From: an uncultured bacterium
GTDB taxonomy: Bacteria; Muiribacteriota; Ozemobacteria; Ozemobacterales; Ozemobacteraceae
Assembly (NCBI GenBank): GCA_964428355.1
Contig: CAYRYU010000004.1
Location: forward strand, 3,261-67,260
DNA length: 64,000 nucleotides
Direction of reading: 5' to 3'
Both the position numbers and the translations under genes were made by a program. Of this stretch, positions 1 to 61,672 are shown piece by piece. A model generated the notes under the pieces. The model saw nothing but the letters and a program-made list of their open reading frames with translations, made no database searches and had not been told where the DNA came from. Within the stretch, counting starts at the first letter, position 1; every line of letters starts with the position of its first letter.

Positions 1-4
1 TCTG

Positions 5-1312
5 ATGAATCAGGAATTTGAGGGCTCATTGCTTGGTTCCCCGGTAGAAACATTGGAGGATTACCTCCATTCAGGAGGGATGAAAGGCTTGAAAAAGGCC
101 CTCAAACTTTCTCCGGGTGAAGTGATTTCCGAGATCAATGCGAGCAACCTCCGGGGCAGAGGGGGAGGGGCATTCCCTACCTGGAAGAAGATGGAGGGGG
201 TTTCGCGGGCCGCGGAAAAGGCGCGTTACGTCATAATAAATGCCATGGAATCGGGGTGCGGGTGTTTCAAGGATCGCGAGCTCCTTCGACGGAATCCCTT
301 TCGGGTTTTCGAGGGAGCATTGATCTCGGCCTACGCGGTTTCCGCCGGAACGGTGATCCTGCCCCTGAGCTGCCGGCAATCAGGTTTGGAAAAGCGTCTT
401 GGAGACGTTCTTGGTGATCTGAATGGCAAGGGCTTCTTCGGCCGCGGAATCCTGGGCTCCTCATTCGATTGCATAATCGAGACCCGCTGCGGGGGCGAAG
501 CCCTTTCATGCGGGGAGGAGACCGCCCTTCTGGAGTTCCTCGAGGGGAGGCGGGCGATTCCGCGCGAAAAACCCCCCTTCCCCGACTCGGTGGGCCTTTA
601 CGGAAAACCAACCCTGGTTTCCAATGCGGAAACCTTTGCGCACGTTCCCGGAATACTTCTGGAGGGGGGAAGCAAATTCTCCGGCTCCGGAAGGGTTCGG
701 TATCCCGGGTCCCGAGTGGTGAGTATCAGCGGGAGGGTAAGGAAGCCCGGAGTTTATGAGTTCCCCGCGGGTACAACCGTCCAGGGAATGCTGGATGCTG
801 CGGGGGGAGCCCTCGATGGCGAGGAAATCACGGCGGTCACCCCGTGTGGTGTCTCCTCCGGGTTTCTTCCCAGGTCACTTTTCAACACACCCATGGACCC
901 CGAATCCTTCCGAAAGATCGGGGTGAATTGGGGGCCGGGGGCCCTCATTGCGTATTCCGGTGTAAACTGTATCGTCAATCTGACCATGTGTCTGGCGCGG
1001 TATTTCGCGGCGGAATCCTGCGGAAAGTGTACCCCATGCCGGGAAGGAACCCGTCGGATCTTCCGGCTTCTCCAGGAGACCTGCGAAAGGAAGCACACAC
1101 CGCGGTCGGGAAAGTCCCGGATGCCGACCAACCCGGAGTATGAACCGGAGCCTCTTGTCAGATCGCTGGGTGAAACGATGCGCCTTGCGTCCAGGTGCAG
1201 CCTTGGGCGGCTCGCCGGCGGTGCGGTCCTTTCGGGGTTCACCTTCTTTCGGGAAGAGTTTCGCGCCCACTTCGAGGAATTCACCTGTCCGGCAGGAGTC
1301 TGCGGAGAATGA
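5..1312 (+). CDS. NADH-binding flavoprotein subunit (NuoF / HndC / HydB-like) partnering the downstream hydrogenase; possibly 5'-incomplete
   Basis: 435-aa ORF with the glycine-rich NADH motif GRGGGAFPTWKK and the C-terminal [4Fe-4S] motif ESCGKCTPCREG typical of 51-kDa NuoF-type subunits. Its TGA stop overlaps the ATG of the next gene (ATGA at 1309-1312). The ORF begins 5 nt from the window edge and the frame is open to position 2, so the true N-terminus may lie upstream. Confidence 0.85.
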   Translation: MNQEFEGSLLGSPVETLEDYLHSGGMKGLKKALKLSPGEVISEINASNLRGRGGGAFPTWKKMEGVSRAAEKARYVIINAMESGCGCFKDRELLRRNPFRVFEGALISAYAVSAGTVILPLSCRQSGLEKRLGDVLGDLNGKGFFGRGILGSSFDCIIETRCGGEALSCGEETALLEFLEGRRAIPREKPPFPDSVGLYGKPTLVSNAETFAHVPGILLEGGSKFSGSGRVRYPGSRVVSISGRVRKPGVYEFPAGTTVQGMLDAAGGALDGEEITAVTPCGVSSGFLPRSLFNTPMDPESFRKIGVNWGPGALIAYSGVNCIVNLTMCLARYFAAESCGKCTPCREGTRRIFRLLQETCERKHTPRSGKSRMPTNPEYEPEPLVRSLGETMRLASRCSLGRLAGGAVLSGFTFFREEFRAHFEEFTCPAGVCGE

Positions 1313-3087
1313 ACATGGAAAGGCCTGCAAGGGTGTTGATCAACTCCATTCCAGTCGAGGTACCCGCCGGAACGACCATCATCGAGGCGGCGGAAAAGGT
1401 GAACGTCATCATCCCCCGCTTCTGCTCCTCGAAGGAGTCTCGGCACAGCGGATCCTGTCGCATCTGCGTCGTCGAGGTGGAAGGGGAGGAGTATCTTCAG
1501 ACCGCATGCAACACGCCGGTTCGGGAGGGAATGGTCGTGACAACGAACTCCCCCCTGGTTCGGAAAACTCGCCGTATGGTTGCCGAGTTGCTGATTTCCG
1601 GTCACCCGGACGACTGCCATTCCTGTACCCGCCTGACTCCCTGCGGACTGAGGAAACTTGCCGCCGAAGTCGGAATCCGGGAGCGGGTTTTTCCCTGGGA
1701 GGGCCAGGGGCGGGCGATCGATGCCTCCCATCCATCGCTTGTCCGGAACCCCGAGAAATGCCTCCTTTGCGGAAAGTGCGTTTTCGTTTGCCGGGAAGTC
1801 CAGACAGTCGATGCGATCGGGTTCGCCGATCGGGGTCGCAACACTGAAGTAGCCTCAGGAGCTCCCAGCGGAATGATCGACTCCCCCTGCGTGGGCTGTG
1901 GACAATGCATCCTGGTTTGTCCTACCGGCGCGCTATCCGACTCGACCGACCCCGATGCCATCTGGAGCGTGCTGGCCGACCAGGGAAAGTTCGTCGTGGC
2001 CCAGGTCGCCCCCTCGACCCGGGCAACCTTGGGGGAGGAGTTCGGGTTCAAGGCGGGGACCAACGTCGCGGGGAAGATCGTCAGCGCCCTTCGCAGGCTC
2101 GGTTTCCGAAAGGTTTTCGATACCACTTTCGCCGCGGACCTCGTCGCGGTGGAGGAGGCCCACGAGCTTCTTGCAAGGCTGGAGAAGTCCTGGGCACAAC
2201 CCGACGGAACCCCGGAAAGCGCTTTCGGTTTGGGCCTTCCTCTCATGACAAGCAGCAGTCCCGCATGGGTCAAATTCTTAGAACATTTCTACCCCTCCCT
2301 GCTTCCCCTGCTTTCTACATGCAAGTCTCCCCAGCAGGTCGCGGGGGCACTCACCAAAACCCATCTCGCGGAGGGCATGGGGATCGACCCCGGGTCGATG
2401 GTGGTCTTTTCGGTAATGCCCTGTACCGCGAAGAAGTTCGAGGCCACGCGTCCCGAGATGGTCGTTTCAGGTATGCGGGAGGTGGATTTCGTCCTCACGA
2501 ACCGCGAACTGGCGCGGCTGATCCGGGAAGCGGGAATCGATTTCGCTAACCTTCCCGAAGAGGATTTCGACGACCCCATGGGCGTCTCATCGGGTGGCGG
2601 CGACATCTTCGGCGTTTCGGGCGGGGTCCTGGAGGCGGCTCTCCGTGTGCTGGCAGGGCTCGTTTCCACCGGGGAGCCGCCCTCTCTGGAGTTCCGCGAA
2701 CTGCGGGGCTTCAAGGACGTCAAAACCGCGATCCTCCAGTTCGAGAACCGTTCTCTCCATGTTGCCGTTGCGAGCGGGCTAGGACCTGCACGCGAGCTCG
2801 TGGAGGGATTGGTTTCCGGGAAGGGGCCGAAGTTCGACTACATCGAAGTGATGGCCTGCCCGGGAGGCTGCATCGGTGGCGGGGGCCAGATCTCGGCGGG
2901 CAACTTCGAGGTCCAGGCAAGAAGGGCCGCGACGCTCTACGCCCAGGATCGGGGAAAACCCGTCCGGAATCCGGCCGATAACCCCTTCATCAAAGCCCTT
3001 TACAAGGATTTCCTGAAAAAGCCCAACAGCCCGAAGGCAGTTTCTCTCCTCCATACCCGTTTCGTGGCCCGAAGCAGAGTCTGGTAA
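1309..3087 (+). CDS. [FeFe]-hydrogenase large-subunit-like protein (HydA / HndD family, M3 domain architecture) with a non-canonical H-cluster L1 motif
   Basis: The N-terminus has a [2Fe-2S] motif (CSSKESRHSGSCRIC), a His-ligated cluster motif (HPDDCHSCTRLTPC) and two ferredoxin-type motifs (CLLCGKCVFVC, CVGCGQCILVCP). The H-domain has L2 MPCTAKKFE and L3 EVMACPGGCIGGGGQ, but L1 reads MTSSSPAW (nt 2248-2262) instead of TSCCPxW. The true start is the ATG at 1309, not the track start at 1195, because it overlaps the upstream stop. Confidence 0.85.
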   Translation: MNMERPARVLINSIPVEVPAGTTIIEAAEKVNVIIPRFCSSKESRHSGSCRICVVEVEGEEYLQTACNTPVREGMVVTTNSPLVRKTRRMVAELLISGHPDDCHSCTRLTPCGLRKLAAEVGIRERVFPWEGQGRAIDASHPSLVRNPEKCLLCGKCVFVCREVQTVDAIGFADRGRNTEVASGAPSGMIDSPCVGCGQCILVCPTGALSDSTDPDAIWSVLADQGKFVVAQVAPSTRATLGEEFGFKAGTNVAGKIVSALRRLGFRKVFDTTFAADLVAVEEAHELLARLEKSWAQPDGTPESAFGLGLPLMTSSSPAWVKFLEHFYPSLLPLLSTCKSPQQVAGALTKTHLAEGMGIDPGSMVVFSVMPCTAKKFEATRPEMVVSGMREVDFVLTNRELARLIREAGIDFANLPEEDFDDPMGVSSGGGDIFGVSGGVLEAALRVLAGLVSTGEPPSLEFRELRGFKDVKTAILQFENRSLHVAVASGLGPARELVEGLVSGKGPKFDYIEVMACPGGCIGGGGQISAGNFEVQARRAATLYAQDRGKPVRNPADNPFIKALYKDFLKKPNSPKAVSLLHTRFVARSRVW

Positions 3088-3127
3088 ACCCCTTCGGCCA
3101 TTCCTGAACGAAAGTCGAGGGAGCGTC

Positions 3128-4564
3128 ATGAAAGTCAAGGAAAACGCCGCATCCGTGATCGATCCACCCGCCATCCACGCACTCCTCGGAAGTCTTCCGA
3201 AACCTGATCCCGGTCGGTTCCGCGAAGTCCTGGAGAAGGCTTCCCTCAAGAAAGGCCTTTCACTCGATGAGACCGCGTTTCTTCTCACCCTCACCGACCA
3301 CGAAATGATCCGGGAGATGACGGAGACGGCAGTCCAGGTGAAGGACGCGATCTACGGGAAAAGGCTGGTACTCTTCGCCCCGCTCTATTCGACGAGCCAT
3401 TGCATCAATGACTGCGAATACTGCGGGTTCCGGGTCACGAACGCCTGTCCCAGGCGGAGACTCTCGCTGGAAGAGATCCGCCAGGAGACCGAGGTCCTGA
3501 TCCGGATGGGCCACAAGCGGATCCTTCTGGTTGGCGGCGAAGACCCCGAGCTCTCGGTCGAAACGGTGGCCGCGCAGGTCCGCGCGATCTACGACGTCCG
3601 GATCGGCAGCGGAAACATCCGCCGGATCAACGTCAACATCGCCCCTCAATCCGAAGAGGGTTTCCGGAAGATCAAGGATGCCGGAATCGGCACCTATCAA
3701 TGTTTCCAGGAAACCTACCATCCGGAGACATACGCCCGGCTCCACCTGAGCGGGCCGAAATGCGACTTCGAAAACCGCCTGCGCGTGTTCGAACGCTGCA
3801 TCAAGGCCGGGATCGACGATTTCGGGGTTGGTTTCCTTTTCGGCCTCTACGACCACCGGTATGAGGTTCTCGCCCTGCTTCAACAGACCCGGCATCTGGA
3901 GGCGAATTTCGGGATCGGCCCCCACACCATTTCCATCCCGCGGCTCGAGCCTGCGGAGGGAACCGATTACTACCGTACCACACCTTGGAAAGTCTCGGAC
4001 GAAGAACTCGTCAAGACCACGGCGATACTACGCCTTTCCGTTCCCTATACCGGTATCATTCTCTCCACCCGGGAATCCCCCGAAATGCGGCATCGGCTTC
4101 TTCGCGTCGGTGTTTCGCAGATCAGCGCGGGTTCGATCACAAATCCCGGCGGATATGCCGAGGTTCAGGGGCCCCATCCCTCCGGCGCGGCCGGAGACGG
4201 CGAAGAAAAGGGTGTCGTTCCGCAGTTCGAGGTCCAGGATCACCGCTCTCTCGACGAGATCATCCGAATGGCCTGTGACGAGGGATACATCCCCAGCTTC
4301 TGCACCGGTTGTTACCGGAAGGGCCGCACCGGGGAGGTTTTCCAGCACCTGGCGAAGGACGAGCATATCGGTCCGATGTGTACCGTCAATGCTTTCGCGA
4401 CGCTTCAGGAGTATCTGGAAGACTATGCATCCCAGGAGACCAAGGATGCCGGGACCCGTTGCATCAGGAGATTCCTGGGCGACGAAAAGGATCCCGGGCT
4501 GAAGAACCGGATATCGGAAGGGATCCGTCGGGTCAAGACAGGGGAACGGGATGTCATCGTTTGA
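3128..4564 (+). CDS. hydG: [FeFe]-hydrogenase maturase HydG (radical SAM tyrosine lyase)
   Basis: 478 aa; radical-SAM motif CINDCEYC; C-terminal CTGCYRKGRTGEVFQHLAKDEHIGPMC matches the HydG auxiliary-cluster pattern CX2CX22C. A GAGGGAG RBS sits 6 nt upstream; the gene lies 40 nt after hydA. Confidence 0.9.
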   Translation: MKVKENAASVIDPPAIHALLGSLPKPDPGRFREVLEKASLKKGLSLDETAFLLTLTDHEMIREMTETAVQVKDAIYGKRLVLFAPLYSTSHCINDCEYCGFRVTNACPRRRLSLEEIRQETEVLIRMGHKRILLVGGEDPELSVETVAAQVRAIYDVRIGSGNIRRINVNIAPQSEEGFRKIKDAGIGTYQCFQETYHPETYARLHLSGPKCDFENRLRVFERCIKAGIDDFGVGFLFGLYDHRYEVLALLQQTRHLEANFGIGPHTISIPRLEPAEGTDYYRTTPWKVSDEELVKTTAILRLSVPYTGIILSTRESPEMRHRLLRVGVSQISAGSITNPGGYAEVQGPHPSGAAGDGEEKGVVPQFEVQDHRSLDEIIRMACDEGYIPSFCTGCYRKGRTGEVFQHLAKDEHIGPMCTVNAFATLQEYLEDYASQETKDAGTRCIRRFLGDEKDPGLKNRISEGIRRVKTGERDVIV

Positions 4565-5630
4565 ACCCGACAAGTTGATCGAATCGCTTTCGGCAAGGGT
4601 GTTCCCGACTCCCCCGCAGGCCGCATTCCTGTTTTCCGATGCGTTCGACCCGTGGCGGGGGAAGCTCTTCGCGGCCGCTGACCTTTCCAGGAAGGAACAT
4701 CTGGGAGACGACGTCTTCCTGCGAGGACTGATCGAATTCAGCAGTCACTGCGCGCGGGACTGCGATTATTGCGGCATCTCGACCCACAATCGTCTTGCGG
4801 AACGTTACCGGATGGACCGCAGGCAGATACTCGATTCGATCGGGGCGGCCATCGAGCTGGGATTCCGGTCCTTCGTCCTGCAATCGGGGGAAGATCCGCT
4901 TTTCGGTGCGGGCGAAATCTGCGCCCTGCTATCGGAAATCCGTGGAAAGTACGATGTCGCCGTCACCCTTTCCGCGGGTGAATGGTCGCGGGAGGAGTTC
5001 GCCGAATTCCGGAAGGCCGGGGCCGACCGTTACCTGCTACGGATCGAGACTTCCGACCCGGTTCTGTTCGCCCGCTTCCATCGGGCACGTCCCCGGGGCG
5101 GAGGCTCCGGATCACCCTGGGAGAACCGGTACCGCTGCCTCCAGGACCTACGCGAACTCGGATTCCAGGTGGGGAGCGGAATTCTGGTCGGCCTTCCCGG
5201 CCAGGATGCGGAGAGCCTTCGCCGTGACCTCGAGTTCCTGATCGCCCTGAAACCCGAAATGGTCGGAATCGGCCCGTTCATTCCCCATCCCGAAACCCCT
5301 CTCGCGGGGGAAAAGGGTGGTACGCTCGAATCCTGTTTGACATTCCTCTCCCTGCTCAGGCTTTTCATGCCTGATGCCTATCTTCCGGCAACGACAGCCA
5401 TGGGCACGGTCGATCCCCAGGGGCGCCAGCGGGCTCTAAGGGCCGGGGCAAATGTCCTGATGCCCAATGTCTCTCCCTTGGAGAACCGCCCGAAATACGA
5501 ACTCTATCCCGGGAAGATCTGCCTTTCCGACGATGCCGCGGTCTGCCGCGGATGCGTGGAACGTATGGTCATCTCCATGGGAAGGAAGGTCAACCTCGGG
5601 AAAGGGCACATCGTGAGACATGTCTATTGA
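4551..5630 (+). CDS. hydE: [FeFe]-hydrogenase maturase HydE (radical SAM, biotin-synthase-like)
   Basis: 359 aa; radical-SAM motif CARDCDYC; BioB/HydE-like TIM-barrel core; overlaps the hydG stop by 14 nt. Confidence 0.88.
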   Translation: MSSFEPDKLIESLSARVFPTPPQAAFLFSDAFDPWRGKLFAAADLSRKEHLGDDVFLRGLIEFSSHCARDCDYCGISTHNRLAERYRMDRRQILDSIGAAIELGFRSFVLQSGEDPLFGAGEICALLSEIRGKYDVAVTLSAGEWSREEFAEFRKAGADRYLLRIETSDPVLFARFHRARPRGGGSGSPWENRYRCLQDLRELGFQVGSGILVGLPGQDAESLRRDLEFLIALKPEMVGIGPFIPHPETPLAGEKGGTLESCLTFLSLLRLFMPDAYLPATTAMGTVDPQGRQRALRAGANVLMPNVSPLENRPKYELYPGKICLSDDAAVCRGCVERMVISMGRKVNLGKGHIVRHVY

Positions 5631-7032
5631 AAATGGTGAAACCTCCTTTCGCCGCGAAAAGGACTTCCTTGGAGAGAGGGAAGTCCCGGCGGGAGCTTAT
5701 TTCGGAATCCATTCCCTGAGGGCTTCCGAAAACTTCGCGCTTTCACCGCCCGGGGGGCCGGCTGGAAGGCTCTGCGCAGGAATGATCAAAGCGCTTGGCG
5801 TGGTGAAGAAAGCCGCCGCCGCCGCCAACCTGGCCATCGGGGAGATCCCGGGGGAGAAGGCGGAAGCGATCTTTCGGGCGTGCCAGGAAGTCATCGACGG
5901 AAAGCTCGACGGGCATTTCGTCGTCCATCCGCTTCAGGGCGGGGCGGGGACGGCATCCAACATGAACGTCAACGAAGTCGTCGCAAACCGGGCGAACGAA
6001 CTTTTGGGTTTCCCTCTCGGGTCTTACTCACCCGTCCATCACCTGGACGATGTCAACCGTTCCCAGAGCACGAACGACGTCTTCCCCACCGCGCTCCGGA
6101 TCGCCGCCATCTGGAGTCTGAGGGAACTGGTCGGGGAGATCGCCCGCTTCCAGGAAACCCTCCAGGCGAAGGAGGCCCAGTTCTCCAAAATACTCAAGAT
6201 CGGACGGACCCAGCTCCAGGACGCGGTTCCGATAACGCTCGGGGAGGAGTTTTCCGCTTACGCGGAGGCGATCTCCCGGGATCGCTGGCGTCTTTATCGT
6301 GTCGAAGAGCGGTTGCGGGTCGTGAATGCGGGCGGAACCGCGATCGGGACAGGGATAACAGCGTCCAGGGGGTTCCAGGCGGAGTTCATACGGATCCTTC
6401 GGGAAGAGAGCGGAATCGGTCTCGCACGGGCGGAGAATCTGGTCGAGGCCACCCAGAACGCGGATGTGTTCGTCGAGGTATCGGGCCTTCTTAAGCCTCT
6501 GGCGGTCACCCTGGGAAAGCTCGCTGGAGACCTGCGATTGCTGGCGTCCGGGCCCCATGCGGGTCTCGGGGAGATCCGTCTTCCCGCGGTCCAGGAGGGA
6601 AGCAGCATAATGCCGGGGAAGGTCAACCCCGTGATGTGCGAAATGATCGGTCAGATCGCAATGAAGGTATACGGTAACGATCAGATCATCACCCATGCCG
6701 CGGAGTCGGGGCAGCTCGAGCTGAATGCCTTCCTTCCGGTCATCATGGATTCCCTGCTCGGTTCCCTCGGGCTTCTGAAATCCGGAATCGCGCTTTTTCG
6801 GGAGAAATGCGTCTCCGGGCTGGAAGCCAACGAGAACCGGTGCCGGGACAACCTTCGGGGTTCACTCGGGGTTCTGACGGTCCTTGCGAAAAAGCTCGGC
6901 CACGCAACGACATCCGAGGTCTATCTGAGGCACCTCGAGACAGGACGGCCCATCGACCTCATCCTTGTCGAAGGGGGGTTCGCCACCCCGGGGGAGATCG
7001 AGGAGGCCCTGACCTCCTTCCGCGCCCGATAG
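5620..7032 (+). CDS. Aspartate ammonia-lyase / class II fumarase family protein embedded in the hyd maturation operon
   Basis: 470 aa; family signature GSSIMPGKVNP and the conserved TNDVFPT / QSTND region; overlaps the hydE stop by 11 nt. Confidence 0.85.
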   Translation: MSIENGETSFRREKDFLGEREVPAGAYFGIHSLRASENFALSPPGGPAGRLCAGMIKALGVVKKAAAAANLAIGEIPGEKAEAIFRACQEVIDGKLDGHFVVHPLQGGAGTASNMNVNEVVANRANELLGFPLGSYSPVHHLDDVNRSQSTNDVFPTALRIAAIWSLRELVGEIARFQETLQAKEAQFSKILKIGRTQLQDAVPITLGEEFSAYAEAISRDRWRLYRVEERLRVVNAGGTAIGTGITASRGFQAEFIRILREESGIGLARAENLVEATQNADVFVEVSGLLKPLAVTLGKLAGDLRLLASGPHAGLGEIRLPAVQEGSSIMPGKVNPVMCEMIGQIAMKVYGNDQIITHAAESGQLELNAFLPVIMDSLLGSLGLLKSGIALFREKCVSGLEANENRCRDNLRGSLGVLTVLAKKLGHATTSEVYLRHLETGRPIDLILVEGGFATPGEIEEALTSFRAR

Positions 7033-7187: not shown

Positions 7188-8219
7188 TCAGTTGGAGGCG
7201 GGTTTCAGCTGGAAGAGCAGTTTCGGGGTTCCGCCTTCGGAAAGGATCTCCTTGAGGCCTTCGAGCATGGCCGGAACGCCGGAGCGGGCTTCCATGAGAT
7301 CCGTAAGCAGGCTCTGGATGCCCTTCCTTGCCTTTCGCTTGACCAGTTTGGCGGTGTCGATTTTCGCGAGCTCCCGGATCTTGGCCAGGGCATCCTCCCG
7401 GTATCCGATTCCGTCGATGAGTCCGTTCGTAAGCGCCTGGGAAGCCGTGTAGATGCTTCCGTCGGCGAGTTTCGTGATGTCGGAAACGGGTTTCCCGCGA
7501 TTCTTCGAGACGATTTCCAGGAACCGGTCCTGGAGTGCATCGATGATCGAAAGAAGCATGGTGCGTTCCTCCGGGGTCATTTCCCGGAAGGGGGAGAGGA
7601 CGTCCTTCTTCGGGGTGCGATCCGATTTCAGCATGATGGACCTGTACCCCACGAGCTGGGCTAGCTTCTCGAGATTGGCGGCCTGCATCAGGACGCCGAT
7701 GCTTCCCACGACGCTGGTGGGGTGCGCCATGATCTTGGTAGCCGCGCAGGAAACGTAGTATGCCCCCGAGCAGCCCATGCTTCCGATGAGGGCAACGATG
7801 GGTTTGTCTTTCTCGGTAATCTTTCCGAGCTTGTGATGGATTATGTCGCTGGCGGTGACCTCACCCCCGGGGGAATCGACCTCGAGCAGGACCGCCTTGA
7901 CCTCGGGGCGCTCCAGTGCGCACTCGACGTCCTTGCGGATGGCTTCCATCGGATCCTTACGGACCTCGAACGCGTACCGGTCGGAATCATCGGCTTCCTG
8001 GATGACACCGCTGATCTTGATCAGGAGGATTTCGTTCTGGGCTTCCTTGTCGCCCTCCACGAACTCGACCTTGTGTTTTGCATCCTTCGAAGGGGCGGCT
8101 CCCATGGTGTCGAGAAGATCGAAAAGGGAGGCGGCGGAAGCTGTTTCGAGCGGCAGCGAAGCGGAAACGAGCAGTGTGGCAAGAAAAAGGGTGGCAAGAA
8201 AACCTGGTCTCATGGTCAC
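7188..8219 (-). CDS. sppA: Signal peptide peptidase SppA (S49 family, 36K type)
   Basis: 343 aa; N-terminal signal peptide (LFLATLLVSASLP); ClpP/crotonase-fold S49 core (GSMGCSGAYYV, catalytic Ser/Lys region). Confidence 0.75.
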   Translation of the reverse strand: MTMRPGFLATLFLATLLVSASLPLETASAASLFDLLDTMGAAPSKDAKHKVEFVEGDKEAQNEILLIKISGVIQEADDSDRYAFEVRKDPMEAIRKDVECALERPEVKAVLLEVDSPGGEVTASDIIHHKLGKITEKDKPIVALIGSMGCSGAYYVSCAATKIMAHPTSVVGSIGVLMQAANLEKLAQLVGYRSIMLKSDRTPKKDVLSPFREMTPEERTMLLSIIDALQDRFLEIVSKNRGKPVSDITKLADGSIYTASQALTNGLIDGIGYREDALAKIRELAKIDTAKLVKRKARKGIQSLLTDLMEARSGVPAMLEGLKEILSEGGTPKLLFQLKPASN

Positions 8220-8249: not shown

Positions 8250-9347
8250 TCACCGGTTCCATTCGGGAGTTTCATCCCGGTCGGGGCAACCCCTCGAGTG
8301 GAACCTGCATCGATTGCAGAGAAGGCACGGATTCACCGGCGTCGAGTCCAGGCCCCGGGCTTTCCGGACCCATTGGCGGTCCCTTATCAGGACGCGGCCA
8401 AGGGCGATGAAATCTGCGTCCCGGTTCTGGAGGATGTCGAACGCCATCTGCGGATACTGGATCTTTCCGACGACGGCGACGGGGATCGAAACCGCTTCCT
8501 TTATGTCTCTGGCGTCGTCGCGGAAGACCCCGGGAGGGGTGGTCGGGCCCACGATCGACTCGGGGCCATGCAACGAAGCATACATCCCTCCGGAAACATG
8601 AATCAGGTCGACTCCGGCTCCTTCAAGGGCTTTTGCCATGGTGACCGACTTCGCCAGGGTCAGCCCCCGGGGGAGGTAATCCCTGACCGACATCCTGTAG
8701 GAGATGGCCAGGTCTGGAAATGAGGAACGGATTGCGCTGACGACTTCCAGCGGGAAACGGTTGGTTCCGTCCGGTTCGAGTCGGTACTCGTCGTCGCGAT
8801 GATTCGTCAGGGGGGAAAGGAATTCGTGAAGAAGATATCCATGTGCCCCGTGGAGCTCGATTCCGGCAAATCCGGCTTCCCATGCGATCCCTGCGGCATC
8901 ACGGAACTTCCCGACGAGGTCCCGGATGTCGAGGATGCTCAGGGGTCTGACCGGCCGGTCGAGAACGGGGCATGGAATGGCCGACGGGGCAACGACCTCG
9001 AGGTTATCCCGGGAGGGAAGACCCTGTCGTCCTGCATGGTGAAGCTGGAGGAAGGGGACCACTCCGAGTTCCCTGATCGTTTCCGCGATCTGGGAGAGTC
9101 CATCCCGGGCCTCGGGGCCAGTGGCATCCAGCTCCCTCGACCAGCCCCGTCCTTCCTGCGAGACGAGGGAACCCTCCACGATTACCATTCCCACTCCGGT
9201 CAATGCCATGTGCTTGTAATACGAAAGCATGACGGGGGTGATCCGTCCGTTCTTGTCCGCGAACTGGGTGGCCAGGGGGGCGAACAGAATCCGGTTCCGA
9301 AGGGTCAGATGTCGTATCTTCCCCGGTTCGAAGGGGTTTGGAGACAT
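8250..9347 (-). CDS. Old Yellow Enzyme-family NADH:flavin oxidoreductase with C-terminal Cys cluster
   Basis: 365 aa from the ATG at 9347 (MSPNPFEPGK). OYE/FadH-type TIM-barrel motifs are present (HGAHGYLLHEFLSP, PLATQ). The C-terminus carries CLLCNRCRFHSRGCP (CxxCxxC-x5-C). The track ORF continues to 10649, but that upstream part is Arg/Pro-rich and overlaps a good + strand gene. Confidence 0.8.
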   Translation of the reverse strand: MSPNPFEPGKIRHLTLRNRILFAPLATQFADKNGRITPVMLSYYKHMALTGVGMVIVEGSLVSQEGRGWSRELDATGPEARDGLSQIAETIRELGVVPFLQLHHAGRQGLPSRDNLEVVAPSAIPCPVLDRPVRPLSILDIRDLVGKFRDAAGIAWEAGFAGIELHGAHGYLLHEFLSPLTNHRDDEYRLEPDGTNRFPLEVVSAIRSSFPDLAISYRMSVRDYLPRGLTLAKSVTMAKALEGAGVDLIHVSGGMYASLHGPESIVGPTTPPGVFRDDARDIKEAVSIPVAVVGKIQYPQMAFDILQNRDADFIALGRVLIRDRQWVRKARGLDSTPVNPCLLCNRCRFHSRGCPDRDETPEWNR

Positions 9348-9440
9348 GCTCCGATGATACCCATCCCGCCTCTCCCGGTCAAGGAGGATCGCAAAAAGGT
9401 GATGCCGATGTAGGTGGGGATGTGGTAAAATGGCCCGGAA

Positions 9441-10346
9441 ATGGACCGCTTGCCAGAATTCCCGTCCCAGACCGGATTGACCTTCGACCACAGGGATGCG
9501 GTTTTTACCTGTCTCGGTGCTTCGGGCATCGATTCCTCCGATTTCGCATTCTACAATCTCATGGGTTGGTACCGAACGCGTCCGGCAATGATTTCCAGGC
9601 TCGAGGGCAGGCTGCTTCTGTCGGTTGAAGGGCCTGAAGGGAACCAGCTTTTCCTTCCCCCGATCGGCGAGCCTCCTCTCGGGCCGGCACTCAAGAAGCT
9701 TCTTTCCTTGCTCCCGAAGTTCAACCAACCCCCCGTGCTTTCCTATTTCCCCGAGTCCATGGTCGAGGACGTGCGCCGGAGCTTCCCCGCGGCAGAGGTT
9801 TTGGCCCAGGAGAAGGATTTCGATTACATCTACCGGCTCCAGGAACTTGCGCTTCTGGCGGGTCGTAAATTCCACCAGAAGAAGAACTTCGTGAACCGGG
9901 TATTGGAAGAGGAGAAGCCCGAGGTCGAATTCATCAACGAGTCGAACCTGGACGAGACATTCCAGTTCCTCGACGCCTGGTACCGCGCCCATCCCCCCGG
10001 AGACCCCAACATGGAGATCGAATCCCTCGCGGCGAAACGGCTGCTTCCATTCCTCAAGGCCCTTTCCGGACTCGGGATTCTGGTGCGTATTCAAGGCCGC
10101 CTGGTCGGGTTTTCGATCGCCTGCCCCGTCCATTCGACGTGTTGGGTTGTTCCCCTGGAAAAAGCTGATCGATCGGTGAAAGGCTTGTACCAGTTCGTCA
10201 ACTGGGCATTGGCGAATCGTCTTCCCGAATTCGTGGTCCTGCTCAACAGGGAGACCGACCTGGGGATAGAGGGACTGCGAACCGCCAAGCAGAGTTACCA
10301 TCCGGTCAAGCTCGAGAAGAAATTTGAGATCAGGTTTCCGGCTTGA
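9441..10346 (+). CDS. DUF2156-like protein (resembles the C-terminal aminoacyl-transferase domain of MprF/LysX)
   Basis: 301 aa with balanced composition and no signal peptide; recognised by overall resemblance to the DUF2156 family. Family assignment is from memory of that domain, not from a search. Confidence 0.55.
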   Translation: MDRLPEFPSQTGLTFDHRDAVFTCLGASGIDSSDFAFYNLMGWYRTRPAMISRLEGRLLLSVEGPEGNQLFLPPIGEPPLGPALKKLLSLLPKFNQPPVLSYFPESMVEDVRRSFPAAEVLAQEKDFDYIYRLQELALLAGRKFHQKKNFVNRVLEEEKPEVEFINESNLDETFQFLDAWYRAHPPGDPNMEIESLAAKRLLPFLKALSGLGILVRIQGRLVGFSIACPVHSTCWVVPLEKADRSVKGLYQFVNWALANRLPEFVVLLNRETDLGIEGLRTAKQSYHPVKLEKKFEIRFPA

Positions 10347-10356
10347 GGTGTCGAAG

Positions 10357-10935
10357 ATGACGTTTGCGCGATCCATTCCCCGCCTTTGGGCAGGGGCGGT
10401 TTTCCTGCTCGCGGCCGTCATCTTTCTTTTCGGTTGCGGATCGGAGCATACGAACCCCCTTCCCGTGACCTCATATGGCGGAGCGCCCCCGGAGCAGGAA
10501 AGCGCAATGGTCGAACTCGATGCGAAAGGCTTCCTGAACGGCGAGCTGACCGGGGCGGTTTCCGTTCCCCAGTATGCGAGCACATACCCCGTCTCATACA
10601 CCGGCTCATGGACTCCGATACTTGCCGGAGCGAAAACCGGATGGTACATGATGTTCTCGGACTCGCCGGGGGCCCGGGTGGACGTTGTGGCAACGGTCTC
10701 GAGGGTGGTCTTCGATTTCTGGGATTACGAGATGTACCAGGGTGCCGGGGTTGTCAGTTTCTACCTGGACGGCGCCTTTCTCGGAAGCGCCTCACTCGTC
10801 GGAAAGAATGCGGCAGGCCAGAAGTTCATGGATTACCAGGTGGTGACGGGGAAAACGACGGTTTCCACGATCACGATGAAGCTCGATTCGGGAAACGCGG
10901 TCTTGACCGGCTTCGTGCTCATCTTCCCCAAATGA
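10357..10935 (+). CDS. Hypothetical lipoprotein
   Basis: The ATG at 10357 gives MTFARSIPRLWAGAVFLLAAVIFLFGCGS, a signal peptide with an LFGC lipobox. The track start at 10324 is a TTG inside the upstream gene's stop region. Confidence 0.55.
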   Translation: MTFARSIPRLWAGAVFLLAAVIFLFGCGSEHTNPLPVTSYGGAPPEQESAMVELDAKGFLNGELTGAVSVPQYASTYPVSYTGSWTPILAGAKTGWYMMFSDSPGARVDVVATVSRVVFDFWDYEMYQGAGVVSFYLDGAFLGSASLVGKNAAGQKFMDYQVVTGKTTVSTITMKLDSGNAVLTGFVLIFPK

Positions 10936-10968: not shown

Positions 10969-12069
10969 ATGGCTTATGAGCTACCTCTCCAAAAAGGACC
11001 GGGACTGAACATGCTCAGGGAGTTGATGGATTTTCTGGGTCTTCTCCCGCCCGAAGAGATCCATACGGCCGTTGCCCGGGGTGAGATCAACGAAGTAAAA
11101 GCCTGGGGAAGGCGGATGGTCCATTCCCTGGAACTCAAGGACCCGGATGGCCGGACTCCCCTTCATACCGCGGTCGAGAACGAGAACATCCAGATTGTCG
11201 GGTATCTTCTCGATTCCGGTGTCCAGTTGAACGTCAAGACGAAAAAGGGGACTGCCCCAATTCACATTGCCGCATCGAAAGGGAATTTCAGCGTCGTCGA
11301 CATGCTCCTTGGCAAGGGAGCAGGTGTCGAGATCAGGGATTTCGAGGGAAGTTCCCCGCTGATGATCGCGTGCAACGCCGGTCACCTGGGAGTTTCGAAG
11401 ATCCTCATCGAGAGAGGCGCGGATATCAACGCGGCCAACCTCGAGGGGCAGACTCCCCTCCACGCCGCGGTTTCCTCGGGCAGGATGGAACTCGTCAGGT
11501 TCCTTCTCGGAAAGGGGGCGATGCTCGAAGCCCGGAACTGCCAGGGCTTGACGCCTTTCCTGGTTTCGGTCCGGAAGGGGAACCGGAGGATGGTGGAGTA
11601 TCTTCTGACCCGCGGGGCCAGCGCATCGACCACCGACGGAACCGGCCGGAACGCTCTTCATTTTCTCGCCACGGGGGGATCCCGCGCTCTGATGGAGAAG
11701 CTCATCAGGCGTGGCAACGATGTCAACATGAGGCAGAAATCGGGAGAGACCCCGCTCCATTATGCCGTATTCCTCGGAACCACAGAAATGGTGGAACTCC
11801 TTCTCAGAAGAGGGGCAGACCCGAACCTCGGAGACCGTGACGGGTGGACCCCTCTTCATTGGGGGTGCTGGACGGGCGAGCTGCCGAAAGTCCAGGTTCT
11901 TGCGGACTGGGGAGCCGATTTCTCCCGTGCAACGAAAAGTGGCAAGACTCCTCGAATGATCGCCCGGATGCTCGGGCGAAACCTCGATCGGATAACGGTT
12001 CCGGAGAGGTTCATGAAGTCCGCCACGGATCCGGACCTTCCGTCGCCGGCCCCGAGCAAACCCCAATGA
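10969..12069 (+). CDS. Ankyrin-repeat protein (cytoplasmic, at least 8 ANK repeats)
   Basis: 366 aa with repeated GxTPLHxAAxxGHxxxVxxLLxxGA units throughout; no signal peptide. Confidence 0.8.
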   Translation: MAYELPLQKGPGLNMLRELMDFLGLLPPEEIHTAVARGEINEVKAWGRRMVHSLELKDPDGRTPLHTAVENENIQIVGYLLDSGVQLNVKTKKGTAPIHIAASKGNFSVVDMLLGKGAGVEIRDFEGSSPLMIACNAGHLGVSKILIERGADINAANLEGQTPLHAAVSSGRMELVRFLLGKGAMLEARNCQGLTPFLVSVRKGNRRMVEYLLTRGASASTTDGTGRNALHFLATGGSRALMEKLIRRGNDVNMRQKSGETPLHYAVFLGTTEMVELLLRRGADPNLGDRDGWTPLHWGCWTGELPKVQVLADWGADFSRATKSGKTPRMIARMLGRNLDRITVPERFMKSATDPDLPSPAPSKPQ

Positions 12070-27132: not shown

Positions 27133-28995
27133 ATGGGATATTCAGTCGAAGAAGTGATCGCCCTCCTCGACTCGGCGGACCATTCGACGAAGGCCTTCGC
27201 GCTCCAGTTCCTGATCAGGAACCTTTCCCTGACGGGGGATACCAAGGTCAGGGAGAAGGTCGACCTCCTGCTCCGCGACGATGATGTCACCATCCGCTTC
27301 TGGGCACGCAAGCTCGCCGAATGCTGTGAGCGTCTGGAGCGCAAGGAGGAGGAACTATCCCAGGGAAAACCTGCGGCTTATGGTGACGAGCTTCCGGCCG
27401 CCCTGGCGCCTGGAGACCTGGACCGGCTCTTCTCCGACCTCGTGAAGGCGGCCACCGGGAAGGACGGAGTCGAGATCCTCAAGGAGATCCTGACGCATGA
27501 TTCCCCAGGCCTCTCCGCGCGCCTCGTCGAATACCTGAAGGGTTGCCGGGATGTCGTGCAGGTTTCCTTTCTGACGAAACAGATCGGCCTGCGTTATCCT
27601 TCCCCCGAAACCCTGGTTGCCCTGGCCCCCTACCTCACCCACGAGGACGATCGCGTTGTCGCGAACACCATCGAAGGGATCGAAACTTCCGAGGATCCCA
27701 AGGTCGTCGCCCTCTTCGCCCAGCTCCTGAACCACCGGAGCCACCGCGTCAGGGGAAACGCGGCCCAGGCCATATCCAGATTCGATCCTGAGGCCGCCAG
27801 AGGCGTGGTTTCGAAGATGATTGGCATGCGGGAGCGACCGAACTTCGTAATCGCCGCCTGTCACGCCGCCAAGCAGATGAAGGACCGGTCCTTTCTTCCC
27901 GCCCTCCTGGCGTTGACCGATGACACCTGGGCTTCCGAGGAAGCGACCGGGGCTATCCTTGCCCTGGTTGTCGATGACGCATTTTCCGAAATGGAAAAGC
28001 TGCTCAAATCGCGGCCCCTCGATGTCCGTGCGGATTCCCTCCTGAAAACGCTTTGCGAGCGAGCCGAAGCGATCCGGAAGGGCTTCTCGAAACCCGATCC
28101 GGGTTTGAAATCATCGGGGGCTGGGGAACCGGGAAACCCGAACCAGGGCCTCTTCGGCCAGGACCGGGACGAAAACCGGATCTTCGATTTCCAGGTCCTC
28201 GAAAGAAAGATATTGGCGCTCGAGGAAGCGATCAACCTCGAGCAGGGTCAGGCGATGGCCCTCGAAAACCGCATCGAAGCCTTCGGACTTTTCTCCCGGA
28301 TCATCTACAGGCCACAGGAAAGCGAGATTTCCCTCATCTACTCCGAGACCAGATACGAACCTTTCTGGGACGTCCGTTTCCGGACCTTCATCGATTATTC
28401 CCGGCTGCGGGAGGCCGTCCTTCCAACCGACAAGCCTGTCGCGGAAGTGAAGATCGGCGGGCAGATAATCAAGGCCACGGATGGGAAGGTCAGGCTCAGC
28501 CTGGGGGAGCACTGTTCCGAGGAGAGCTGCCACGAGGTTTTCATCGACGCGTGTTCCGGAAAACGGGTCGACCTTTCGGTTCATGCAGCGAACCCGAAGC
28601 ACGAGATCGGGACTCCCGAGGAACTGCACGTAGCCGACTTGATTGTCCTTCCCGCAAAAGTGAAGGCCTCGGTGATCATGCGTGAGCTTCTTGCCGAGTT
28701 CGTGAAACCCGTAAAAGCCGATGAGATCAACGGTGAGAAGATCACGATCGAGCGGTTGAACCTGATGTTCAGGCCGATACACGCCTTCGAGTTCCAGTGG
28801 GGGCAGAAAACGGCTGTTCTGGAGATCGATGCGCTGACCGGTGCGATTTCCGCCGGCCGCGCCGTTAAGGAGCGGTTCCAGGCCGTATTCTCCACCGATA
28901 AGCTTTTCGAAATCGGATCGGAAGTCTTCGGGTTGGTGGTTCCCGGAGGGGAGATCGCCCTGAGACTTGCCCGCGCAGTAATGAAAAAGGGTTGA
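27133..28995 (+). CDS. HEAT-repeat (PBS-lyase-type) protein with unknown C-terminal domain; first gene of the phosphatase operon
   Basis: 620 aa. The N-terminal ~300 aa consist of HEAT-like repeats (VRGNAAQAISRF..., DDRVVANTIEGI...). The C-terminal half has no recognisable motif. The stop overlaps the start of the next gene. Confidence 0.7.
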   Translation: MGYSVEEVIALLDSADHSTKAFALQFLIRNLSLTGDTKVREKVDLLLRDDDVTIRFWARKLAECCERLERKEEELSQGKPAAYGDELPAALAPGDLDRLFSDLVKAATGKDGVEILKEILTHDSPGLSARLVEYLKGCRDVVQVSFLTKQIGLRYPSPETLVALAPYLTHEDDRVVANTIEGIETSEDPKVVALFAQLLNHRSHRVRGNAAQAISRFDPEAARGVVSKMIGMRERPNFVIAACHAAKQMKDRSFLPALLALTDDTWASEEATGAILALVVDDAFSEMEKLLKSRPLDVRADSLLKTLCERAEAIRKGFSKPDPGLKSSGAGEPGNPNQGLFGQDRDENRIFDFQVLERKILALEEAINLEQGQAMALENRIEAFGLFSRIIYRPQESEISLIYSETRYEPFWDVRFRTFIDYSRLREAVLPTDKPVAEVKIGGQIIKATDGKVRLSLGEHCSEESCHEVFIDACSGKRVDLSVHAANPKHEIGTPEELHVADLIVLPAKVKASVIMRELLAEFVKPVKADEINGEKITIERLNLMFRPIHAFEFQWGQKTAVLEIDALTGAISAGRAVKERFQAVFSTDKLFEIGSEVFGLVVPGGEIALRLARAVMKKG

Positions 28996-31799: not shown

Positions 31800-34700
31800 C
31801 CCGCGGTCTGGCAGGGGAACCAAGGAACCGTTGGGGGCTCCCCGCATGGTTCCTCTTGGTAATCCTTTTCTGGCTTCCCTTCGAATTCCTGTTGATGAAC
31901 GGACTGCACCGGTCACATGAAGCCTTGGTCGAAGGAGCGGATGGGATCGTCCGGAACCTCCTCAGGGGAAAGATCCTCGAGTTCAGATACCTTCTCCAGG
32001 CGGAAAACGCCCTTTCCGCGAGAATGAAAGTCGCGGTCGAGGTTGCCAGGACCTCCGGCTCTCCGGAAGAATGGTTCGGACGGGTGAAAGGGGCGCTGGG
32101 AGATTTCCCCGCGGGTTCCTTCGAACTGCTCTTGACCAATGGAAGAGAGGTCATACCGGTCACCCCCGGCTGGGATCCTGCGACACTCTCGCATTTTCTG
32201 GGGATCACCATCGAAAAGGCGGAATGCTTCTCCAATACCACACTGGCGGCGGCCTACCTTCGAAAACATATCTCGGACGCGGAATTCTTCGGGGTGGAAC
32301 GTTTCTCAAAATGGAAATGGATCCCTCTTCCCGGAAAGCAGGGATTCCCCAACCAGGTTTTCGATCGAAACTGGCTTCCGGATACGGTTTTCACGATCTA
32401 CCGGACACCGCGGAATACCTGGGGCGCTTTCGGCCGGGTTGGGGAGGAGGGTTGGACGTATCTGATCCGGTTCCACAGACAGAACCTTCCGGAGGGCTTC
32501 CTGTTGGGGATTTCCGACCAGGCGGCCCGCGAGCGGGGAATTCCGGTTACACGCGAAGGTTTCGGGCCCCCGGTTCCGGAAGAGTCGAAGCCCGGTTGGT
32601 TGAGCGAAATCCATGAGGCAATTTCCGGCAGGGGAGTGAGTCTGCGGGAGTTCGATGAAAAAGCGGGCTGGCTTGTGGGGCGCGGAAGGATTCCCCGGAG
32701 CCTCTGGGCTTTTCTGATCCTTGCGCATATCGCGAACTTCTTTCTGAGCATCGCAGCTCTGGGCGGGGTTTTCCGGCTTCTCCAGGGGGAAAGTTATGAC
32801 CGGTTGGCGGTTTCGAGGAAGGTTTTCCTCGGTTTGCTCGGAGGCGCGGGGTTGCCGCTGGTCTTCGCCCTCATCGCAACGGAGGGGGCAACGGGTGCCC
32901 GTATCTTCCGCGAAATCCAGAAAAGCCAGTTGGAAATGGACCAGTCCCTGCGGCTGATCGAGTCGGAGTTCGAGAAGTTCACCCAGGAGATCGGCCAGGA
33001 TCACCGGGAGGACGCGAAGGGGATAGAATACCCCTGGGACCCGGTTCGCGGGGAGAGATGGGTCGACCAGATGTCCACCCGACATGAGGTGATTTCCCAG
33101 ATTGAGGTGATTTCGTCGGCCGGGGTCAGGCTGACTGCCCGCGGACCCTTCTCCTGGTCGTGTTATCGTGCGTCCCGTCTTCCGAGAGAACCTCGGGAAG
33201 AACATTTCCGGAGGTGGTCGAGGCGGGGGTTCCTGTTTCTCAAGGAAGACCTCGACATGCTTTCCCTCGATGATCCCGGTCAGCCCTCCCCAACCAGTGA
33301 CAAGCTTTTCCGGCTCGTAACGGAGCTTGCGAAGAACAACCCAAAGATGATCAAGCTGAGGTTGATCGAGGTCCTAGGGAAGAGGGTCTGTGCGGCGGTG
33401 AACGGAATCGGGGACACGGGCTCCGAGGAATCGTCGGGAGGCGGTGACGCCCTGATCGAGGTGGCTTTCAAGGGACGCGATGCCGAATTCTTCCAGGACA
33501 TCCTGGTCTCGCTCGGGTTGCTCAAGCCGGTCCAGTTCGGAATGTTCAGGGGCCTTTCATTTTCCGACGTCGTTCGCGACAAGACAGGGCGGGCGCAGTT
33601 CTTCGTCGTGATCTTCCACCGGGTCTCCGACCTGACTGAGAAGTTCCTCTACCAGGTCGGCTCCCGCAGACTGTTTCCCGACCGGTACTCCTTCCTCGGA
33701 ATCTCGATGTTCTACGCCAAGGTGGATTTCGGAGGGGGCCTGGAAGAGAGCCGGAGGCTCATGGTGGAAGACCTTTTCACCGAGATCGGACAGAACTTCC
33801 ACGGGATCCTCCCCGACGAGGAGGGCTATCCCCGGCTGTTCGCGATCAGCCGGGGGCGGGGCACCCCTGATTACACTCTCGCCCTTTCCCTTCCCATGGC
33901 CGAAATCGCCAGGTCGATAATCCAGGAGAGACGGCTGCAGATTTCCTTCCTTCTTTTCCTGCTTCTTGCGCTGATCGGAATCTCCTGGTGGCTTCGGCGG
34001 TTGCTGTTGAAGCCGCTGGGCAACCTCCAGACCCTGGTGAACGCCATGGTCAACGGGACCTACGAAGGCCTCCGGATCGAACCCGGGATAGGGGAGCTGG
34101 GCACCCTGGCAGGCTTGTTTGCCGACACCCTCGACGGAATCCGGCAGATGGACATGGCCCGGATCATCCAGGACCAGCTCCTCCCTTCCGCCCCGGTCGA
34201 GGCAGGGGGATTCCGGATGGCCGGGAAGTCGCTGATGATGTCCCAGGTCGGAGGGGACTATTTCGACATGATCCCCCGCGGGAAGGACCGTCTTCTTCTC
34301 GTGGTCGGGGATGTATCCGGACATGGGCTTTCCGCCGCGATCATCGTGGCGATGATGAAATCGGGGCTGACCGCTCTCGCGGAGACCGACCTGGAACCCA
34401 ACGATATCCTCCAGCTGATCAATGGCGTGATGTTCAAGACGCTGGCGAGGAAGAAGATGATGACCGTTTTCCTCGGTAGCCTGGACGTAATCGGCGGCCG
34501 CTTCACCTACACGAACGCAGGCCACAACTTCCCCTACCTCCGCCAGCAGTATGGGGACGGGACATTCCTCAAGCAGGCGAATCTCCCGCTGGGCGCAGTC
34601 GTGACCCGAAAGTACAAGGTTGATTCGATAGTCCTGGGCAAGGGTGATCTCCTGATCCTTTACTCCGACGGAATAACCGAGGTGGTCAACCCTGCCGGAA

Positions 34701-34861: not shown

Positions 34862-34953
34862 CCGGGGCCAAAAATGAACGCGGCCGTGACCAACTTCGAC
34901 TGGTCAGGGCCGCGAGAAACTGACAGGGTGCTCTTTGAAAGGTCCGCTTTTCG

Positions 34954-35454: not shown

Positions 35455-35671
35455 ATTCCCTCCGCCTTCTTTGTCCTTAAGGACAGGTTTCTTCAAGTTC
35501 TCACATTATTGAAAACGTCCGAGTCGGCAGGGGTGTTGAAGTTTTCGCGAAGGGTGGAAATTTTCCCCCCGGGCCGGTGTATCCCGCCCGTGATGGTGGA
35601 GATTGAGGGAAATGAAGCATTCCCGCTTCAACCGGGCGTCAGAAAGGTGGGAAGTGTCGCTTTCGGGGCCC

Positions 35672-37747: not shown

Positions 37748-37795
37748 TTCGAAGAGCCTCCCGGTCAATTCAGAGCACGGCCCCATTTAATATTG

Positions 37796-51514: not shown

Positions 51515-51682
51515 TTGTCCAGGAACCTCCATCGTCGAATTGGGGGAATTCACCCCGCTGACATGACAAGCATAACGGAAACGACCCTTCAGGTCAATGG
51601 CGGTCGGACCGGGATGGAAATTTTGCGTGGGATCGGGAAATCGCATATAATGGAGTCATAGAATGATACCGGGGGGGAACAG

Positions 51683-55970: not shown

Positions 55971-55983
55971 TCTTTCGCTCCCT

Positions 55984-57345: not shown

Positions 57346-57366
57346 TTCGAATCTCCTTCCTGAATG

Positions 57367-58815: not shown

Positions 58816-58884
58816 CTTTCGGAATACTCCTGTTCTTTTTCACTGGGCCCGACCTCTGGGGCCGGCCGGGAGCGGGGTTCCGGG

Positions 58885-61654: not shown

Positions 61655-61672
61655 TTTCCTCTCCTTTTCCGG

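Follow-up and report, generated by a model that had tools for sequence, protein, structure and literature searches.

Which hydrogenase is served by the maturases HydG and HydE encoded at one end of a 64,000-nucleotide (nt) stretch of DNA from an uncultured bacterium of the family Ozemobacteraceae, and where is their partner HydF? The stretch (hereafter the window) covers positions 3,261 to 67,260 of the forward strand of contig CAYRYU010000004.1 (NCBI GenBank assembly GCA_964428355.1) and opens with a gene cluster for a NuoF-like flavoprotein (HydB), the [FeFe]-hydrogenase subunit HydA, HydG, HydE and an aspartase (AspA). An initial annotation made from the letters alone had raised the question, pointing to an aberrant L1 motif in HydA and to the lack of hydF. 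Our answer is that the cluster is probably an operon in which maturases and aspartase are co-transcribed with a trimeric NADH-linked [FeFe]-hydrogenase, and that it would operate in the textbook mode, HydF being supplied in trans. The layout is largely ordinary, as both the linkage of aspA to hyd genes (Pagnier et al, 2024) and hydG loci without a nearby hydF are already known. As judged from its sequence, the form found in Riflebacteria is nevertheless a distinct variant, marked by the loss of hydF from the end of the operon, by a short, eroded HydB and by the replacement of the proton-relay cysteine of HydA.

Results

The cluster is a six-gene operon that starts with hydC

The sequence upstream of the window was read on a 14-kb contig from a sibling sample (SRR12133403; L082), which was found by an exact HydG protein match. 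It shows 4 mismatches to the window in 12,217 nt and reaches 1.9 kb beyond the window start, window position 1 being L082 position 1909; these 1.9 kb are the extent of the upstream sequence read. The NuoE-like subunit that had been expected to lie upstream directly adjoins hydB: hydC (L082 1419–1913) encodes a [2Fe-2S] protein of 164 amino acids (aa) with PF01257 and nuoE-family matches. Its 3′ end occupies window positions 1–5 (plus strand), where its TGA stop at 3–5 overlaps the hydB ATG at 5–7. hydC is preceded by a 672-nt intergenic region and then by a divergent secreted-protein gene, and a promoter-like TTGACA-17-TAAATT is present at L082 1373–1401, 17 nt ahead of the nuoE-like ATG. Neither hydF nor a second or canonical hydA lies immediately upstream; the unrelated divergent gene is found there instead.

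All further genes of the cluster are on the plus strand of the window. The short NuoF-like flavoprotein gene hydB (5–1312; 435 aa) is followed by hydA, for the large subunit of a group A [FeFe]-hydrogenase (1309–3087; 592 aa), by the radical S-adenosylmethionine (radical-SAM) maturase genes hydG (3128–4564; 478 aa) and hydE (4551–5630; 359 aa), and by the final gene, an aspA-like gene for an aspartate ammonia-lyase (5620–7032; 470 aa). The overlaps are 4 nt (ATGA) between hydB and hydA, 14 nt between hydG and hydE and 11 nt between hydE and aspA, and the 40-nt gap between hydA and hydG contains a GAGGGAG ribosome-binding site. The open reading frames and junctions of this compact order, with overlaps or gaps below 45 nt, are thus as initially described. 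Downstream of aspA, after 155 nt, lies a convergent gene for an SppA-like S49 peptidase (7188–8219; Pfam Peptidase_S49).

Given hydC, the promoter-like site and the divergent gene upstream, we read the operon as hydC-hydB-hydA-hydG-hydE-aspA. It would be transcribed as a single six-gene unit from the promoter just 5′ of hydC, with five of its six genes translationally coupled. No promoter or terminator signals inside the gene cluster exceeded shuffled expectation, and Rfam elements were not matched at E ≤ 0.1 in the 672-nt leader or within the operon.

HydA keeps L2 and L3 and has lost the L1 cysteine

Taken together, the domains of HydC, HydB and HydA are those of a group A [FeFe]-hydrogenase of the soluble, trimeric, NADH-linked kind. 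HydA scores 439.8 bits on TIGR02512 (FeFe_hydrog_A), above the cutoff of 405.95; its best NCBIfam match, NF040763 (NADH-dependent [FeFe] hydrogenase, group A6), is at 722.8 bits, below the cutoff of 765. With the Pfam domains Fe_hyd_lg_C, Fe_hyd_SSU, Fer2_4 and NADH-G_4Fe-4S_3, the protein starts with a [2Fe-2S] domain, followed by a [4Fe-4S] domain with a His ligand, two more [4Fe-4S] domains, the H-domain and a C-terminus resembling the small subunit. Among proteins of solved structure it matches best those of bifurcating HydABC complexes from Thermotoga maritima, Acetobacterium woodii and Thermoanaerobacter kivui (E 1e-162 to 1e-108), with the T. kivui protein and A. woodii HydA1 in front.

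The aberrant L1 motif was confirmed. It reads TSSSPAW (2248–2268, plus strand), and its codons are identical in three assemblies: the window, L001 (SRR12133404) and L082. S316, encoded by an AGC codon at 2254–2256 that is one base from TGC, replaces the cysteine of the clade consensus TSCSPGW (the canonical L1 is TSCCPxW). The L1 of the 120 nearest homologues reads TSCSP in 111 cases, TSCCP in 5, SSCSP in 3 (all from Riflebacteria) and TSSSP in 1, so that the cysteine is present in 119 and the window protein is the sole exception. When HydA is aligned with CpI, with the CpI variants C299A and C299D and with A. woodii HydA1, S316 falls on CpI C299, the proton relay to the H-cluster. The HydA1 of A. 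woodii, an active bifurcating enzyme of solved structure, has TSCSPGW, and the enzymes of T. maritima and T. kivui, HydA2 of the hydrogen-dependent CO2 reductase (HDCR) and CpI have TSCCP.

The other motifs are intact on the plus strand. L2 is MPCTAKKFE (2416–2442), which fits MPCxxKxxE, and L3 is EVMACPGGCIGGGGQ (2845–2889), which fits ExMxCxxGCxxGGGQ and includes the equivalents of both L3 H-cluster cysteines; C338 and the Glu and Ser residues of the proton pathway are also kept. Most other L1 variants without this cysteine among 150 family representatives lose L2 or L3 as well. On these alignments the window HydA is unusual in that, within the motifs compared, only the L1 cysteine is lost. 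Engineered C-to-S variants at the proton-relay position keep the H-cluster, evolve H2 at 0.002–1.3% of the wild-type level and are shifted in reactivity toward H2 oxidation (PMC9563086; PMC3485046). The HydA of the operon probably still receives an H-cluster, and by analogy the Cys-to-Ser change would make it a slow enzyme biased to H2 oxidation, or a sensor-like one.

Three further features of HydA sequences were observed around L1. The cysteine before KSPQQ in STCKSPQQ (2314–2337), C338, is kept in 114 of 114 TSCSP-type HydA proteins, and the equivalent position varies in TSCCP enzymes (Ala in CpI, Val in T. maritima, Ala in T. kivui). This conservation may reflect covariation with the Ser that occupies the canonical ligand site of [4Fe-4S]H; the structure papers examined on the A. 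woodii and T. maritima enzymes are silent on which residue is the ligand in TSCSP-type enzymes. Ahead of L1, alignment with related HydA proteins marked out a 15-residue segment, KSWAQPDGTPESAFG (residues 293–307; 2185–2229, plus strand), in which 13 residues are inserted. None of the Riflebacteria relatives has this insertion, and L045 has a shorter one there. Finally, the Ozemobacter-type HydA proteins of L003, L004, L163 and L165 have L1 motifs of the forms SSCSPSL, SSCSPSM and SSCSPGL, which keep the cysteine and swap the near-invariant Trp of TSCxPxW for Leu or Met.

HydB does not have the features of a bifurcating flavoprotein

The pairing of a flavoprotein with HydA had been taken to suggest a possibly bifurcating enzyme. 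HydB has the Pfam domains Complex1_51K, SLBB and NADH_4Fe-4S and scores 332 bits on TIGR01959, under the cutoff of 559. It aligns to residues 156–565 only of T. maritima HydB (PDB alignment) and ends right after the CPAGVC motif. By this alignment and its length of 435 aa, it lacks the N-terminal [2Fe-2S] domain and the C-terminal 2×[4Fe-4S] domain. Bifurcating enzymes are recognized by GGPSG in the SLBB region, A/E at position 232 and M at position 234 (T. maritima numbering), non-bifurcating NADH-dependent ones by T/S at 232, K/S/A at 234 and no GGPSG (Losey, 2020; PMC7311640). In the window protein CGVSS (nt 845–859) occupies the GGPSG position and K is found at 234, while the Cys at 232 fits neither class. 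The suggestion of bifurcation is not borne out by a HydB that is short, has no extra iron–sulfur (FeS) domains and carries CGVSS for GGPSG and K for M234; an architecture like that of the non-bifurcating Hyd1ABC of Syntrophomonas wolfei fits the predicted enzyme better.

HydB retains the flavin mononucleotide (FMN)-loop motif RGRGGGAFPT (nt 152–181) and the N3 [4Fe-4S] motif ESCGKCTPCREG with its cysteines (nt 1013–1048). Elsewhere it is eroded. The nucleotide-binding motif is NAMESGCGCFKDR (nt 239–277) where NADEGDPGAF is expected, NADEGDPG having become NAMESGCG, and a second motif is CGGEALSCGEETAL (nt 488–529) where GAGAF/YxCGEETAL is expected, with GGEAL for GAGAF. In 17 homologues from outside Riflebacteria 85 positions are invariant, and the protein differs at 23 of them, including those of the DEGDPG and GAGAY motifs; at the same 85 positions the Riflebacteria proteins of L002 and L005 differ at 31 and 40, respectively.

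HydG, HydE and AspA are well conserved

Both radical-SAM maturases are present, as had been noted: they exceed the curated cutoffs and keep their cluster motifs. HydG reaches 459 bits on TIGR03955 (cutoff 312), with CX3CX2C at nt 3401–3424 and the C-terminal auxiliary-cluster motif CX2CX22C at nt 4301–4381, and is 60–62% identical to its Riflebacteria relatives. HydE reaches 367 bits on TIGR03956 (cutoff 255), with CX3CX2C at nt 4749–4772. The two look like intact, functional maturases. AspA, a Pfam Lyase_1 protein, scores 596 bits on the subfamily model NF008909 (cutoff 510) and 494 bits on the equivalog TIGR00839, below the cutoff of 681; its GSSIMPGKVN loop (nt 6598–6627) fits GSSxMPxKxN. 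AspA is proposed to supply nitrogen for dithiomethylamine (DTMA), and aspA is linked to hyd operons (Pagnier et al, 2024; PMC11736057). Following the literature, HydG would build the Fe(CO)2(CN)(Cys) synthon, HydE would process it, and the aspartase, whose substrate is predicted, would supply ammonium for the dithiomethylamine bridge.

hydF is missing from the locus

A HydF hidden Markov model (HMM) was built from 20 HydF proteins of related loci, of which two seeds were checked and scored 540–563 bits on TIGR03918, and was run on all six-frame open reading frames of at least 40 aa. It gave zero matches at E ≤ 10 in the 64-kb window and recovered HydF in 28 other loci at 450–715 bits. Nothing was found at E ≤ 1e-20 in the 1.9 kb upstream on L082, nor in the available flanks (up to 10 kb per side) of six related Riflebacteria loci. 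Pfam scans of 30 further window proteins revealed nothing related to hydrogenases or their maturation and agree with the HMM, so hydF is absent from the whole 64 kb, as first stated. A fused or hidden HydF domain is excluded by the ordinary lengths of HydE, HydG, HydA and AspA and by the space of only 155 nt after aspA.

How remarkable is this absence? For hydG/hydE loci generally the initial annotation made too much of it, since hydF is missing from 17 of the 37 loci in which hydG is flanked by 9 kb or more on each side. T. maritima is a case of this kind, with hydE (TM1269) and hydG (TM1267) together and hydF (TM0445) elsewhere in the genome. For aspA-containing loci it made too little of it: hydF is nearby in 16 of 18, a count that agrees with the published observation that aspA almost always adjoins hydF (PMC11736057).

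The nearest relatives of the window in one-genome-per-species and protein searches are Riflebacteria, including Ca. Ozemobacter sibiricus, Ozemobacteraceae and 'Candidatus Riflebacteria bacterium'. Five Riflebacteria loci share the gene order from nuoE on; L002, L003, L004 and L163 are complete through aspA, and the contig of L165 ends inside hydG. A further Riflebacteria locus, L005, has no aspA, and a metagenome scan with HydG added a single Riflebacteria-like fragment (L083). Outside this group, HydE (47–49% identity) and AspA (55–56%) of two Armatimonadota loci are among the closest relatives of the window proteins. L120 (6010–15148) has hydC-hydB-hydA-hydG-hydE-aspA with hydF directly after, and L141 (1111–7638), which is cut at both ends and starts at hydA, has hydA-hydG-hydE-aspA-hydF. 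This order and the count for aspA-containing loci are most simply explained if hydF was, as is probable, the last gene of the ancestral operon and was moved or lost in the Riflebacteria lineage. L120 and L141 are themselves Armatimonadota-type metagenome contigs and appear to show the operon in its ancestral state, hydF included.

A protein search with the HydF of L120 returned at least 120 matches, all at least 61% identical, and all those named by organism were from Armatimonadota, none from Riflebacteria. This search is uninformative and provides no evidence that hydF is absent from Riflebacteria. The papers examined on Riflebacteria and Ozemobacter hydrogenases are silent on HydF.

Unequal divergence and alternative readings

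Several observations weigh against a hydrogenase that is matured with HydF from elsewhere. Pairwise identities in Riflebacteria rise along the operon, from 33–43% for NuoF and 48–57% for HydA to 60–62% for HydG, 62–67% for HydE and 69–73% for AspA; HydB and HydA diverge faster than the other three. In an Acidobacteriaceae control the corresponding values are 77–79, 81–84, 78–82, 69–76 and 79–83%, with no faster divergence of NuoF and HydA. An Acidobacteria–Ignavibacteria pair (50, 46, 49, 40 and 46%) likewise shows no faster divergence of the structural genes. This pattern fits a relaxed or changed constraint on the hydrogenase, whereas HydG, HydE and AspA, the best conserved proteins of the operon, appear to be under purifying selection. 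HydB has also lost residues of the FMN/NADH site (D82M, G84S, P86C and G166E), which makes an NADH-linked activity uncertain. In L005 (7038–12520; Riflebacteria bin nHGR_bin4) erosion extends further. The L1 of its HydA-like protein is SSVCP, L3 and the bridging Cys are missing, and the protein scores 111 bits on TIGR02512 (cutoff 406); the NuoF-like protein has lost GRGG and CGEETAL, and intact hydG and hydE follow in the same operon. Without L3 and the bridging Cys in the neighboring gene product, the maturases of L005 cannot serve it. Lastly, both aspA-containing loci without a nearby hydF are from Riflebacteria, and hydF, which we infer to be encoded elsewhere in the genome, was not found in the loci searched. 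To ask which hydrogenase these maturases serve is thus legitimate, and the divergence of HydB and HydA and the H-cluster-less HydA-like protein of L005 sharpen the question.

The main rival reading, possible though on balance unlikely, takes HydCBA for a paralogue that is decaying or has been re-purposed, be it for H2 sensing or regulation or as a non-hydrogenase electron-transfer module comparable to the Bfu family with its H-cluster-less HydA subunits. On this view hydG, hydE and aspA are kept mainly for another [FeFe]-hydrogenase elsewhere, their linkage to hydCBA being historical. The faster divergence of NuoF and HydA in Riflebacteria, not seen in Acidobacteriaceae, speaks for such a history. 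Across 116 homologues, conservation reaches 95% or more at 170 positions; HydA is changed at 30 of these, against an average of 1.7 and a maximum of 13 in those homologues, and HydB is changed at the 23 of 85 positions described above. Riflebacteria HydE, however, also differs at 12–16% of its conserved positions, so that part of the divergence is a long-branch effect, with NuoF the clearest outlier. The loss of the L1 cysteine, confined to the window protein among the 120 nearest homologues, likewise suggests decay, as does the L005 protein without L3 ahead of intact hydG and hydE. Such decay occurs in the family, given that L1 variants without the first Cys are usually without L2 or L3 among the 150 representatives, and H-cluster-less HydA subunits are known in HydABCSL (PMC9499530). 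The window HydA, on the other hand, passes TIGR02512, keeps L2, L3, C338 and the Glu and Ser residues of the proton pathway, and is encoded by a gene that is translationally coupled to others of a conserved operon. Neither the 64 kb nor the 10-kb flanks of related loci showed a second hydA.

We consider it quite improbable that Riflebacteria have no HydF at all and that HydG, HydE and AspA assemble the H-cluster or a related Fe-CO-CN cofactor with another protein, possibly HydA or HydCBA, as the scaffold. This would account for the absence of hydF from the 57 kb downstream and the 1.9 kb upstream of the operon and from the flanks of the six related loci, for Riflebacteria operons not ending in hydF as those of Armatimonadota, which belong to the closest outgroup relatives, do, and for the sole aspA-containing loci without a nearby hydF being from Riflebacteria. 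The absence, however, covers loci and not whole genomes, split hyd loci are common (17 of 37), and HydE, HydG and HydA are of ordinary length with no fused HydF-like domain. To our knowledge, every characterized maturation system requires HydF, and no HydF-independent maturation was reported in the literature examined.

An origin of TSSSP and of the lack of hydF in errors of sequencing or assembly is highly improbable: the source is a metagenome-assembled genome and the exact HydA protein is recorded only from NCBI and Logan assemblies, but L001 and L082 have the L1 codons of the window and differ from it at 1–4 positions over 3–12 kb, the operon is uninterrupted, its gene order recurs in the five related Riflebacteria loci, and the 155 nt between aspA and the convergent gene leave no room for an overlooked hydF.

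Other genes in the window

A 799-aa open reading frame at 8250–10649 (minus strand) was rejected as a high-GC artefact. Pfam identified different, real genes there, for an OYE-type flavin oxidoreductase (8250–9347, minus strand) and an LPG_synthase_C protein (9441–10346, plus strand), both syntenic with L004. The protein encoded at 42195–48821 (minus strand) has 2208 aa and combines HAMP with adenylate/guanylate-cyclase domains; in L003 and L163, giant genes resembling it closely follow the end of the hyd operon.

Two ankyrin-repeat proteins (10969–12069, plus strand; 50726–51646, minus strand) consist almost wholly of Ank_2 (E 1e-91 and 1e-48) and are of a kind uncommon in free-living bacteria. 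At 28992–37786 there are three adjacent genes for large SpoIIE/PP2C phosphatase-domain proteins of 935, 1021 and 704 aa, one with PAS and GAF sensor domains. A cluster at 54726–62545 (minus strand) resembles reductive pyrimidine catabolism, with PreA-like (DHO_dh and 4Fe-4S) and PreT-like (Fer4_20 and Pyr_redox_2) dihydropyrimidine dehydrogenase subunits, an aldehyde dehydrogenase, an amidohydrolase and a CN-hydrolase.

Discussion

If hydF is simply encoded elsewhere, as we favor, the operon is one more ordinary case of split hyd genes, from a phylum that has been little studied, and adds one data point for the association of aspA with hyd genes and for a short HydB as a marker of non-bifurcating enzymes. 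Its HydA would still be a natural protein with the proton-relay Cys-to-Ser change and with L2, L3 and the remaining proton pathway intact, a change whose engineered equivalents shift reactivity by orders of magnitude toward H2 oxidation. Hydrogenase and flavoprotein appear to erode stepwise inside a single phylum while the co-transcribed maturases are conserved, with one relative reaching an H-cluster-less HydA. The terminal loss of hydF from an otherwise conserved operon also gives a concrete set of genomes that bears on the dispensability of HydF. A HydF-free pathway, if true, would be the first natural HydF-independent assembly of the H-cluster.

The arrangement has close counterparts among described and newly compared loci. 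As in the aspA-hyd operons of Pagnier et al (2024; PMC11736057), hydG, hydE and aspA are linked to hydA. The Armatimonadota hydCBA-hydG-hydE-aspA-hydF loci (L120 and L141) have a gene order identical to that of the window through aspA, where the window operon and the Riflebacteria operons whose ends were reached stop, hydF being missing from their neighborhood.

Of the known enzymes, the four solved structures that match the window HydB best include T. maritima HydB (7P5H); NuoF-like subunits of other Bfu-type complexes rank ahead of it. Compared with bifurcating HydABC (T. maritima, A. woodii and T. kivui; 7P5H, 7Q4V and 8A6T), the window HydB has neither the extra FeS domains nor GGPSG, and features linked to bifurcation are therefore absent. 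With S. wolfei Hyd1ABC and Syntrophus aciditrophicus HydAB the locus shares adjacent genes for NuoE-like, NuoF-like and HydA proteins (L082 1419–1913; window 5–1312 and 1309–3087). It also shares with this non-bifurcating type the FeS-domain architecture of HydA and, in HydB, the lack of GGPSG and the K at the position of T. maritima M234. It departs from the type in the C at 232 of HydB (not T/S), in the eroded DEGDPG and GAGAY motifs, and in a HydA that scores under the A6 cutoff and has Ser for the L1 Cys of its clade.

Close parallels to this HydA are found among engineered enzymes. CrHydA1 C169S, CaI C298S, CpI C299S and CpII C169S carry the same substitution at the aligned position and likewise have intact L2 and L3. 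In the window HydA, by comparison, the substitution is natural and stands in a TSCSP-type enzyme, in whose whole clade the position of CpI C300, a canonical cluster ligand, is already Ser.

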